From: a virus
Lineage: Duplodnaviria; Caudoviricetes
Virus record (IMG/VR): IMGVR_UViG_3300048670_000236
Span: 1 to 42,956 of that record
DNA: 42,956 bases
Strand: one strand, 5' to 3'
Shown: positions 2,625 through 30,654 of the stretch, in pieces
Numbering within the stretch: the first letter of the stretch is position 1
Layout: every line of letters starts with the position of its first letter
Program-made: the position numbers and the translations under genes
The notes under the pieces: model-generated
Seen by the model: only the letters and a program-made list of their open reading frames with translations
Told to the model about the DNA's origin: nothing
The model's database searches: none

Positions 2625-3030
2625 ATTCCGCCGCCTCAACGGCAGGAAAGCTGGGGCTTTCGTCGCCGGGATCGCCCTGTGGGGCGTCATTCGCCACATC
2701 CTGTGGCGCTGTGGCGGCTGCGTCCTGCTCGTTGCGGACGCGGGCCGGAACCCAATCCGCCGGCAGTGCCGCCTTCATGTCATCGATCAGCACGCGCTGC
2801 TCGTTGATGGTCTTGATGGCGTTCTGCATCATGCTGCCCATCGACCGGAGCCTGACCTGCGTGCGGAGCAGCGCCGTGCGGGTCTCAAGGAAGGTGCTGA
2901 GCAGGAGCAGAAGCTCCTCGGGTACGACGGGGAAGGTCTGCCCTTCCGGGGTCTCGTCGGCAAGCTGGACCCACAGGAGGGCGGTGTCGGTCGAGAAGGT
3001 GGCAGGCGCAGTCGGTGTCTGTTCGGTCAT
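2623..3030 (-). CDS. Hypothetical protein (135 aa) coupled to integrase; C-terminus overlaps attP
   Basis: ATGA overlap with integrase stop; its stop codon overlaps the att core. Confidence 0.75.
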   Translation of the reverse strand: MTEQTPTAPATFSTDTALLWVQLADETPEGQTFPVVPEELLLLLSTFLETRTALLRTQVRLRSMGSMMQNAIKTINEQRVLIDDMKAALPADWVPARVRNEQDAAATAPQDVANDAPQGDPGDESPSFPAVEAAE

Positions 3031-4040
3031 TCAAGTACCTTTATGGCTTCGGTGTAGTTGTGTGGCGACAGATGTGCGTAGCGCATCGTGACGCTCACGT
3101 CGGAGTGACCGGCAAGCTCTTTGACGGTCACGAGATGCACTCCCCTCTGGACGAGGCGAGAGCAAAAGGTGTGGCGCAGGATGTAGGGGATGAACTGGTC
3201 ATCCGCCTCCAATCCCATCGCCGATTTCATGCGGTCCCAGTTCCCACGCAGTATCGCATACGAGTAGTCCGAGAAGAGACTGTTCGCGCGGCGCGTCAGT
3301 ACCTCCTGCGTGCGTGCGGTGAGCGGGATCATGCGGGACTTCTTCGACTTGCTCTGGCTCGGGTGCACCACGATGCCGGTGATCTTGCCATCGCGCATCA
3401 CGAGGTTGCTGGGTTCCAGTGCAAGGTGCTCGGAGCGGGTCCGCAGTCCGGTGTCCATGCCTACGATGATGAAGTCACGCAGCGCATCGAGGCCCATGTC
3501 TGAGGCCCACTGCAGCATGCGCTTCTCCTCACCCTCGGTGATGTAGCGGATGCGGTGCTCGCCTTCGGCAAGCTTCGGTATCTTGGGCATCTTCATGATG
3601 CCGCCGAGGTCCACATAGTGCTGCAGCATCTTGCTCAGTGCTGCCAGCTTGCGGTTCACGGTGCTCGTGCTGTTGCCCTGCTGCTTGAAGCGGGCGATCA
3701 TGTCGCGCACGGCCTGGTCCGTCACATCAGCGGGCGATACGTCCTCGCCGATGGCTTGCACGACCTGCTTGGCGTTGCCCACGAGGCTCTTCTCGGCACG
3801 CATGCCGTCCCAGTGGTCATCGGCAGTGCGCGTGCACAGCGCGGACATGGTCGCAGGCAGGCCAGAGGCCATCGCCACGACCGAAGCGGGCGAGCGGCCT
3901 GCCATGATGGCGGCTCGGCTTTCGAGCAGCCACTGATCCGCGGATGCCTTCGTCGCGAAGGTCACCCGCAGTCTCCCTCCCGGCAGGGAGGCGTGGTTCA
4001 AGACGGCTTGGAAGCTTCCGCCTCTCTGATATACTGGCAT
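3027..4040 (-). CDS. int: Tyrosine integrase
   Basis: DTGLR, K, LRHTF, LAGH and TMRY catalytic motifs; N-terminal arm-binding-like segment. Confidence 0.96.
   Translation of the reverse strand: MPVYQRGGSFQAVLNHASLPGGRLRVTFATKASADQWLLESRAAIMAGRSPASVVAMASGLPATMSALCTRTADDHWDGMRAEKSLVGNAKQVVQAIGEDVSPADVTDQAVRDMIARFKQQGNSTSTVNRKLAALSKMLQHYVDLGGIMKMPKIPKLAEGEHRIRYITEGEEKRMLQWASDMGLDALRDFIIVGMDTGLRTRSEHLALEPSNLVMRDGKITGIVVHPSQSKSKKSRMIPLTARTQEVLTRRANSLFSDYSYAILRGNWDRMKSAMGLEADDQFIPYILRHTFCSRLVQRGVHLVTVKELAGHSDVSVTMRYAHLSPHNYTEAIKVLE
4008..4035 (+). promoter_or_regulatory. Sigma70 promoter for the tRNA, antisense within the integrase 5' end
   Basis: TTGGAA (4008-4013), 16 bp spacer, extended -10 TGaTATACT (4027-4035), 13 nt before the tRNA. 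Confidence 0.7.
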
Positions 4041-4048
4041 CTCGATCT

Positions 4049-4134
4049 CCCTGCTTGGCGGAACGGTATACGCAGCAGACTTAAAATCTGCCGCTCGAAA
4101 GGGTATGTGGGTTCAAGTCCCACAGCAGGGACCA
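4049..4134 (+). tRNA. tRNA-Leu, anticodon UAA
   Basis: Acceptor CCCTGCT/AGCAGGG, discriminator A and encoded CCA; D arm with GG; anticodon arm GCAGA-CTTAAAA-TCTGC; long variable arm; T arm GTGGG-TTCAAGT-CCCAC. Confidence 0.96.
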
Positions 4135-28555: not shown

Positions 28556-29350
28556 TTACGCAGTCTTGATCTGCACCGCAGCTTCAGGACGCAGGACGCC
28601 GTGGCCCGAAGCGTACTTCGCGACCATGAGCGTGCCCTGACGGCGGATGTCGTATTCCGACTCCATCGCGAGGTCCATGAGCTTGACGGTACCAACCGAC
28701 GACGGGTGGGCGCAGATCGCCACCGTGTTCGTCGCGTTGACTGCCTGTGCGGCAGCAGCGCCACCAGCGTCCACACCGGTGCCGGTGATGTTCGTGGTCG
28801 GCAGGTTCGGAGTCTTGACCAGCTTGAAGCCAGCCACCTCGTAGACCTTGCCAGACATGACGCCACCGTTCGCTCCGCCGGCAACGTCCTTGTTGACTGC
28901 CGAGGAAGCGTTGGCCAGTGCGTAGTACTGGGCGGGCTTGAGGAAACAGTAGCGATCCTCTTGCGGGACCCAGTTGTTGTCCAGCACCGCAGCGGCGTTG
29001 AACAGCTCGGTGATGAGGTCAGCAGCAACGTCAGCCGCGTTGGCGTTCGTGAGGACCGTACCACCGGGGTATCCGGCGTCACCGACGTTGGCGGATGCCA
29101 GAGCGGCCTGAACCATCGTCTGCAGAACGTGCTTGTCCCACTGGATGGCGAGGGCTTCGCCCATGCTCTTCGAGTAGATGCTGCGAACGTCATAGTGGTT
29201 CATGGCCTCGTCAATGTTCGCGATGAAGTGATGGGCGATCAGCAATCCATTGATGCTGATGACCTTCTCGTTCGCGTTCACTGCGTTGCCGAGGATTTCG
29301 GCACCCGGGGTATGGTAGCCAGCGGAGCTGCGACCAAGGACCGGGAATTG
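28556..29350 (-). CDS. Major capsid protein, exon 2
   Basis: Begins QFPVLGRS, ends GHGVLRPEAA...; joined to exon 1 gives 319 aa with the T7 gp10 motif GKSAQFPVLGR. Confidence 0.93.
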   Translation of the reverse strand, partial: QFPVLGRSSAGYHTPGAEILGNAVNANEKVISINGLLIAHHFIANIDEAMNHYDVRSIYSKSMGEALAIQWDKHVLQTMVQAALASANVGDAGYPGGTVLTNANAADVAADLITELFNAAAVLDNNWVPQEDRYCFLKPAQYYALANASSAVNKDVAGGANGGVMSGKVYEVAGFKLVKTPNLPTTNITGTGVDAGGAAAAQAVNATNTVAICAHPSSVGTVKLMDLAMESEYDIRRQGTLMVAKYASGHGVLRPEAAVQIKTA

Positions 29351-29958
29351 CTTTGTGTTTGGACGGGCGCTACCCCGTCGCGCTCACTGTTGCCAGTGAG
29401 AGCAGACTATCTCTTAATCAGGTGCGTGCCGCTGCACGTATTCGAGCGCAGCTTGTATGCGCTCGGGAGAATCTTTCAGCAGGCCAATCGCCGTGTTGCA
29501 CGAAGTACAGAGTAGACCTCTGAGCTTCTTCGTCTTGTGGCAGTGATCGGCGGCGAGGCGAGAGTACCGTGAGCTGTTGAGAGCAGTCTTGCAGATGGCA
29601 CAGGTGCCGTTCTGCAGGATGAACGCTTTCTCGTAGGCTTCTGGGGACCATCCGGTTTGACGCATGCGGCCCCGCTCAATTATGCAGGCCTTGCATTCCG
29701 TCTTGTATTTACCGGTCTCTTTGCGGAAGTAAAACTCCGACGCGGGCTTTTCAGTCCCGCATGTGCGGCACGCACGAGGCGATTGCTCGTGCATGGTAGT
29801 CCTATGCTAGTTTGATTTTGCGCGCTTCGGGGACGCTTGCCCCCTACTCCCTTGCGGGATAGTCGTTACACCTTCCTCCCTTGCGGTGAGGCTTGGCTCG
29901 GTATTGTCCCAGTGGGATGTTCACCGAATTCACGCAATTTTATAGTCAGCCCAATTTA
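29351..29958 (-). mobile_element. Group I self-splicing intron (608 nt, IA-like)
   Basis: P1 GUCAGCU|...GGCUGAC with U-G at the splice site; P3 UUGCGUG/CGCGCAA; R GUAACGACUA; S AAGAGAUAGUCU; P9 hairpins; terminal G at 29351; P10 AAUUG/CAAUU. Confidence 0.92.
29414..29794 (-). CDS. Intron-encoded homing endonuclease (endonuclease VII-like) in the P8 loop
   Basis: N-terminal CxxC...CxxC; QNGTCAIC, DHCH and RGLLCTSCN. Confidence 0.9.
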   Translation of the reverse strand: MHEQSPRACRTCGTEKPASEFYFRKETGKYKTECKACIIERGRMRQTGWSPEAYEKAFILQNGTCAICKTALNSSRYSRLAADHCHKTKKLRGLLCTSCNTAIGLLKDSPERIQAALEYVQRHAPD

Positions 29959-30123
29959 AGCTGACTTGCCCGACTCGATGGTGCGGACGAAGTGCTTGTC
30001 AACGGTTACCGCGTTGCGCTCGAAGGCGGCGAGAACTTCGCCAGAGAAGACCTTGAGGAACAGGGCATCGGTTCCGCCAGAGCCGTTGACTTGGCCAAGA
30101 CGGGTTGGGGTAGCTGCAGTCAT
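29959..30123 (-). CDS. Major capsid protein, exon 1 (55 codons)
   Basis: ALFLKVFSGEVLAAF...RTIESGKSA, the T7 gp10 N-terminus; AAGGA RBS. Confidence 0.93.
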
Positions 30124-30294: not shown

Positions 30295-30654
30295 TTACAC
30301 GCGGTCGCGAACGATCAGCGTGATGACGCGGTCAGCACCCTGGTTCACAGGGGTGCCCGTGGTACCCGACCGGACCTTGAGGGCCATGATCGAGTCAGTC
30401 TTGTCAGCCGGAATCTGGATGTACCGCGATGCGCCAGCGGCGACCGTGTACTCAGAACCGCTGTCGTAGAGATCAGCGAAGTTGGTGCTGTCAGCAGAGG
30501 CCTGAAACGAAAGGCCAGCCGTAGTCCAAGCTGCGGGCATCACGATGCCGACGAGGGAGACGCCACGACCGAGACCGGCCACGCCCGAGAGGGACGCGCC
30601 GTTGGCGATGGTGACCTGAATGCGACGATAGCCGCGAGACTGAAGAACAGACAT
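30295..30654 (-). CDS. Putative virion accessory / decoration protein (119 aa)
   Basis: Beta-rich sequence between scaffold and capsid genes; AAGGA RBS. Confidence 0.6.
   Translation of the reverse strand: MSVLQSRGYRRIQVTIANGASLSGVAGLGRGVSLVGIVMPAAWTTAGLSFQASADSTNFADLYDSGSEYTVAAGASRYIQIPADKTDSIMALKVRSGTTGTPVNQGADRVITLIVRDRV

Follow-up and report, generated by a model that had tools for sequence, protein, structure and literature searches.

How does a phage produce its most abundant virion protein when the reading frame for that protein closes after 55 codons? The question is raised by the window analysed here, a complete virus record of 42,956 bases with direct terminal repeats, in which the major capsid gene on the minus strand is split between codons 55 and 56 by a 608-nt insert (Table 1). 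The gene set is T7-like, with a single-subunit RNA polymerase, primase/helicase, DNA polymerase, portal, scaffold, capsid and tail tube genes, and this gene order together with a match to the Gp10A family PF21703 (E 1.6e-82) identifies the interrupted gene as a T7 gp10-type capsid gene.

The preliminary description of this DNA had placed the end of the capsid frame at a TAA directly after GKSA and had obtained a 319-residue protein by removing the insert. Both boundaries were reproduced exactly, and intronless alleles skip precisely this length. The exons joined without the insert form one 319-aa frame that is colinear with 70 intact relatives, and both exons match one profile, phrog_267 (major head), at positions 29-75 (exon 1) and 76-325 (exon 2). 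Among 80 related viral loci, the capsid gene is unbroken in 70 and carries an intron in 8, while 2 are too short to tell. The G+C content of the intron is 56%, compared with 60-62% for the exons. Residues R47, I49, G52, S54, A55, F57 and P58 are invariant in the 59 distinct intact capsids. The proposal that conservation in the capsid gene peaks at the insertion site was rejected, since the 12-residue segment 50-61 ranks 76 of 308 in conservation. That the interruption is an assembly artefact, or marks a dead phage broken by a free-standing nuclease, is extremely improbable. The sequencing runs that match in full may themselves be the source of the window DNA, but run X4, from a different study, holds zero-mismatch pieces within the intron and across the 5' junction; because of these pieces and of cultured phages that carry introns at the same site, an artefact is excluded. 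None of the 18 runs listed was an RNA run.

Table 1. Positions of the features of the capsid locus, in window coordinates.
Feature	Position	Strand	Remarks
Ribosome-binding-like AAGGA	30138-30134	-	upstream of exon 1
Capsid exon 1	30123-29959	-	55 codons, last codon GCT; final U belongs to the predicted 5' splice site
Group I intron	29958-29351	-	608 nt; in-frame TAA is the first triplet, G the last base
Internal guide	29956-29944	-	contains P1 and P10 strands
P3 5' strand	29937-29931	-	
P4-P5-P6-P6a domain	29928-29867	-	
P7 5' strand	29866-29860	-	bulged C
P7.1	29859-29848	-	
P7.2	29844-29829	-	
P3 3' strand	29824-29818	-	
P8 5' strand	29817-29814	-	
Predicted hairpin over nuclease AGGA site and AUG	29807-29791	-	paired when the 5' domain or the complete intron is folded
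EndoVII/DHHRN-type putative homing endonuclease	29794-29414	-	126 aa, loop L8; stop just before J8/7
P8 3' strand	29419-29416	-	J8/7 next
P7 3' strand	29409-29404	-	
P9	29400-29383	-	GCAA loop
Second P9 hairpin	29379-29362	-	
Terminal G	29351	-	
Capsid exon 2	29350-28556	-	264 codons and stop; PF21703 Gp10A-like; opens CAA TTC CCG
Intrinsic-terminator-like hairpin and T run	28545-28514	-	3' of the capsid gene

Several other features were observed around this locus and elsewhere in the genome. In the capsid leader (about 30215-30165, minus strand), upstream of the start codon, a GACAAY motif comes after a hairpin. In simple form the element is present in 47 of 62 related leaders and in 16 of 400 control windows; the hairpin in this leader is longer (z -3.0) and is without an Rfam match. 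It may represent a conserved element that acts as a promoter, in processing or in autoregulation. No sigma-70-type promoter was found near the capsid locus. Between the scaffold and capsid genes lies a family-less gene of 119 aa (30295-30654, minus strand), and the Ralstonia phages have a hypothetical gene of similar size at its position. A tyrosine integrase on the minus strand adjoins a tRNA-Leu(TAA) on the plus strand (3027-4134), which suggests that this T7-like phage is temperate and has an attachment site.

An Infernal-type check with a group I model, as the preliminary description had proposed, returned a match to Rfam RF00028 at 29969-29383 (52.8 bits, E 9.7e-11), the sole intron match in the window and just 2.8 bits over the curated cut-off, the gathering score of 50. 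The fold of the 5' domain beats 200 of 200 shuffles (z -3.9), whereas the 3' domain alone is weaker, with 9 of 200 shuffles equally good (z -1.7). The elements claimed earlier, P1, P3, P7, P8, P9, P10 and the terminal G, could all be placed, as could P4-P6. P1, P3, P7 and P10 were confirmed to pair: nucleotides 29951-29944 pair with the final 8 nt of exon 1 to form P1 (8 of 8 pairs, with a U-G at the splice site), and nucleotides 29956-29952 pair with the first 5 nt of exon 2 to form P10 (5 of 5 pairs). P4-P6, P7.1, P7.2, P8 and P9 were read off the folds and the sequence, P8 being a helix of 4 pairs placed by eye. Two hairpins, P7.1 and P7.2, lie between P7 and the 3' strand of P3, an arrangement associated with subgroup IA2, to which the window intron may belong. 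Collectively, the model score, the U-G of P1, a P3-P7-P8/P4-P5-P6 core with the G-binding site in P7, the terminal G with P10, and the restored frame assign the insert to the group I introns, whose general features have been reviewed (PMC3984707).

The EndoVII-type open reading frame noticed earlier in P8 was borne out by a match to PF02945 (Endonuclease_7, E 8.8e-21) and by its position between the two P8 strands. Aligned with T4 EndoVII and Hpy99I, the protein keeps the D-H-x-H, R and N residues of the DHHRN catalytic motif (PMC6083498), and with its zinc-binding cysteines it belongs to the EndoVII/DHHRN (F-CphI family) nucleases. Every one of the 276 nuclease pairs shows more synonymous than non-synonymous difference, with synonymous sites saturated in most of them; the closest pair has dN 0.05 and dS 0.56. 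Two locus searches with the nuclease as query returned distant loci, 1 in the first and 13 in the second; the single locus had no capsid match.

We consider it highly probable that the insert is a group I intron with an EndoVII gene in L8, which likely self-splices to give the 319-residue capsid and whose nuclease is predicted to cut intron-free alleles, with repair copying the intron in. Established directly are the boundaries, the in-frame stop, the pairings, the covariation described below, the intact nuclease motif and the patchy distribution. By the established group I mechanism, ribosomes would halt at the UAA directly past the 5' splice site, P1 would fix the U-G cleavage site, and free guanosine bound in P7 would attack it; P10 and the terminal G would then position exon 2 for ligation. 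We strongly infer that capsid production depends on splicing. By the precedent of I-TevI of T4, the hairpin over the nuclease start would restrict the entry of ribosomes into the core. A 61-nt fragment prefers a different pairing, and hairpin control of the nuclease start is therefore a prediction only.

Introns at this site were collected with a search pattern made of the exon-1 end and the guide sequence. All 20 pattern matches in viral contigs were capsid introns with a nuclease. In metagenomes, 19 of 27 matches had a capsid exon and 8 had no capsid, and none of the 13 matches in bacterial and archaeal genomes lay at a capsid locus. The 46 full-length matches formed 23 clusters (~90%), and removal of a chance match (L142) left 22 clusters with the same capsid site occupied, the window included, with seven cultured Ralstonia phages among the carriers. 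Pairing in P1 is partly imposed by the search pattern in this family; that in the other helices is not. In the alignment of the 5' core, pairing is found in 95.5% of 660 cells, and both partners vary in 17 of 30 pairs; sliding the partners as a control lowers these values to 29-47% and 5-8 pairs. The P3 region of the three long introns is misaligned in this alignment, and the shuffle test is inflated by the relatedness of the sequences. P7 and P10 covary across clusters. An Rfam scan of seven related capsid introns left five below the cut-off (34.7-46.9 bits). The terminal G is present in 21 of 22 clusters; the L124 intron has A instead of G before the exon-2 QFP codons at the boundary used, which an assembly error, an additional codon or a terminal A, which would be rare, could explain.

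A second capsid intron site lies 9 nt upstream, after codon 52, in L041, L044 and L047, which represent one sequence with an intron of 609 nt (about 1883-2491 in L041; Rfam 74 bits). A pattern for the long architecture described below was discarded as too loose (119 loci, about 480 estimated). L085, an unrelated 79-kb viral contig, has group I introns at 67-350 and 483-794 (77 and 61 bits).

Seven Ralstonia phages, represented by nine GenBank records, have a same-site intron of 515 nt: DU_RP_I, RsoP1EGY, vRsoP-WF2, -WM2, -WR2, PY04L1 and PY065YO380. These intron-bearing relatives have been cultured and produce virions (PMC8703784), and the word 'intron' is absent from the main text of that genome paper. 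Miscalling of this gene by automatic annotation had been predicted, and the relatives in GenBank illustrate it: the four records examined all have split genes with a 55-codon capsid fragment and no intron feature, and three of them list endonuclease VII and three a truncated capsid starting at codon 84. P-PSG-11, of the same genus, and LUZ100 have an intact capsid gene. MW202497 was rejected as a carrier, as its EndoVII lies outside the capsid gene. The DNA polymerase locus of DU_RP_I (L269, about 1001-1110) has an intron-core-like match, and because this sits at the break between two annotated fragments, the phage may carry a second unannotated intron.

A further explanation does without splicing: translation of the capsid would begin within exon 2, and exon 1 might or might not give a 55-residue peptide of its own. 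Exon 2 is open, with a GTG at codon 79, and the start annotated for the Ralstonia relatives lies in this exon. However, the first exon-2 start is scattered over codons 59-106 in the 21 of 22 clusters scored, with at most 3 bases matching AGGAGG in all, and codons 56-61 change silently only, with 4 silent and 0 amino-acid differences between RsoP1EGY and P-PSG-11. For these reasons we judge an exon-2 start very unlikely; it would also leave the conserved ribozyme unexplained.

The introns that splicing would remove from this site come in two architectures. The long introns, those of the window, L112 and L116, measure 598-611 nt, have extra hairpins after P7 and place the nuclease start after P7. 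The compact introns, of 19 clusters, measure 504-537 nt, and their P3 strand follows just 3 nt past P7. The compact nucleases form one clade (95/95) without that of the window, which is 55% identical to those of L112 and L041, 50% to that of L116 and 38-50% to the compact ones. Neither a long-type nor a codon-52 intron was found in cultured phages.

Between the guide and a point past P7, 18 of the 19 compact clusters have no stop in the nuclease frame; the other two frames are open in 1 and 0. An ATG, GTG or TTG stands in this frame in or at the P1 loop in 17 of 19, and these 17 have no start between P7 and the first cysteine pair; in the 2 clusters lacking a loop start, the start is located after P7. 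The guide-to-P7 spacing is 89, 92, 98, 101 or 104 nt, a single frame throughout, and length changes in the first 140 nt of each compact intron (L001, L018, L027, L032, L087-L105, L117 and L121) come only in multiples of 3. Many overlaps of reading frames with intron cores may be gene-calling errors (PMC3073962). Frame-preserving insertions and deletions in the compact relatives are comparative evidence for a nuclease frame that crosses the ribozyme core, and they argue strongly, if indirectly, that the compact nuclease is translated through it; the sequences are related, and starts inside P4-P6 would also be possible. In the compact lineage the nuclease would be read from the P1-loop start, a few bases past the exon-1 stop, through the core, and each compact transcript would therefore become either capsid mRNA or nuclease mRNA. 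We tentatively entertain a broader reading, for which the case is not yet an even one: a single codon junction may be a long-contested homing site of two intron-nuclease lineages, of which the compact and commoner one would act as a splice-or-translate switch and that of the window would rely on a hairpin-hidden start.

Homing would occur in mixed infection and would carry nearby exon bases along. Contigs of runs X6 and X8, from two other studies, have flanks about 95% alike to those of the window and skip exactly 608 nt; of the 9 junction bases, 5 differ in the X6 contig and 7 in the X8 contig, compared with 12 of 314 and 9 of 198 in the flanks. No joint was found in runs X13 and X15. Similarly, the exons of RsoP1EGY differ from intronless P-PSG-11 at 18 positions within 64 nt around the junction (-46 to +18) and at 33 in the other 881 nt, and P-PSG-11 has Ala at codon 54, where all 59 distinct intact capsids have Ser. 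The Ala codon ends in T at 15 of 51 KSA-QF junctions (L005-L084) and in 22 of 22 intron clusters, where the search pattern forces it. Exon differences that cluster at the junction thus match the prediction of homing. This divergence fits co-conversion of the flanks, escape of the target or both; ordinary recombination or recoding of the target could also be its source.

The intron might instead splice while its nuclease no longer homes here, or cuts elsewhere, with vertical inheritance. Nuclease loss apparently occurs: in run X8, a 324-nt contig corresponding to 29318-30018 of the window seems to carry a same-site insert in which 109 letters replace 487, apparently a nuclease-less intron of about 230 nt, from this one contig of low depth (4.1). 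The two closest intronless alleles may be resistant, given their junction differences, and a second, free-standing EndoVII-type gene exists in the same genome (35375-35986, minus strand), where it overlaps the beginning of the gene for ribonucleotide reductase; it is 38% identical to the intron nuclease, and no intron match lies there. Against loss of homing, the nuclease motif is intact and a 95% identical homologue is likewise full length, the synonymous excess is family-wide, and the intron is present or absent among close kin. We regard loss of homing as unlikely; the group I intron is real and probably mobile.

The preliminary description implied that a capsid gene is a novel home for a phage intron. 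This was overstated, since capsid introns are published for LittleE, Tuc2009 and crAss-like phages; the T7-like capsid site does seem new. The intron in the major capsid gene of mycobacteriophage LittleE is spliced in vivo, as established by RT-PCR and N-terminal sequencing (PMC3706429, which also cites the Tuc2009 capsid intron). Similar to the window, these introns split the major capsid gene, exon 1 ends in U and the intron in G. However, both phages are siphoviruses of Gram-positive hosts with a different capsid lineage, and the LittleE nuclease, encoded on the opposite strand and LAGLIDADG/HNH-related, is unlike the EndoVII of the window (PMC3706429). For crAss-like phages of the Delta and Zeta groups, group I introns are likewise predicted in MCP genes (PMC7886860). 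These share with the window a predicted nuclease-bearing group I intron, a podovirus-type capsid gene and confused annotation, but belong to another phage order, were found through protein domains and reach up to four inserts per gene.

The combination of a group I intron with an EndoVII/DHHRN frame in an essential phage gene is known from the podovirus DNA polymerase genes of LUZ24 and the Yersinia phages Berlin and YpP-G (PMC6083498, PMC10914365; also bioRxiv 2020.01.16.909176), with splicing of the LUZ24 intron demonstrated in vivo (PMC6083498, PMC10914365). There the host gene is DNA polymerase, whereas here it is the capsid; the window nuclease matches LUZ24 gp35 over 48 residues only (54%) and lies apart from it in the tree. 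The td intron of T4 with I-TevI, for which 'core creep' and ribosome-binding-site hairpins have been described (PMC3073962), resembles the window in its in-frame stop just past the 5' splice site and in the hairpin that hides the nuclease ribosome-binding site. I-TevI is encoded within P6, with its 3' end overlapping the core, whereas in the compact relatives the overlap seems to begin in the P1 loop and to take in the entire 5' core; unlike them, the window nuclease frame has no overlap with the 5' core. A literature search of main texts, covering few subscription papers, found no report of a T7-like capsid intron, and the available parts of PMC10580990, PMC9145550, PMC8351571 and PMC8557907 contained nothing on capsid introns. 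The T7-like capsid site is thus apparently an unreported location for a group I intron.

These findings add the T7-like capsid gene to the range of mobile group I introns, which occupy it at 8 of 78 informative related loci. They also correct the annotation of cultured Ralstonia biocontrol phages: the 'major capsid protein' deposited for them is without its first 83 residues. The natural intron-plus and intron-minus alleles, with divergence centred on the junction, offer material for studies of homing and of target escape. If the splice-or-translate switch of the compact lineage is true, it would act on the most abundant protein of the virion.
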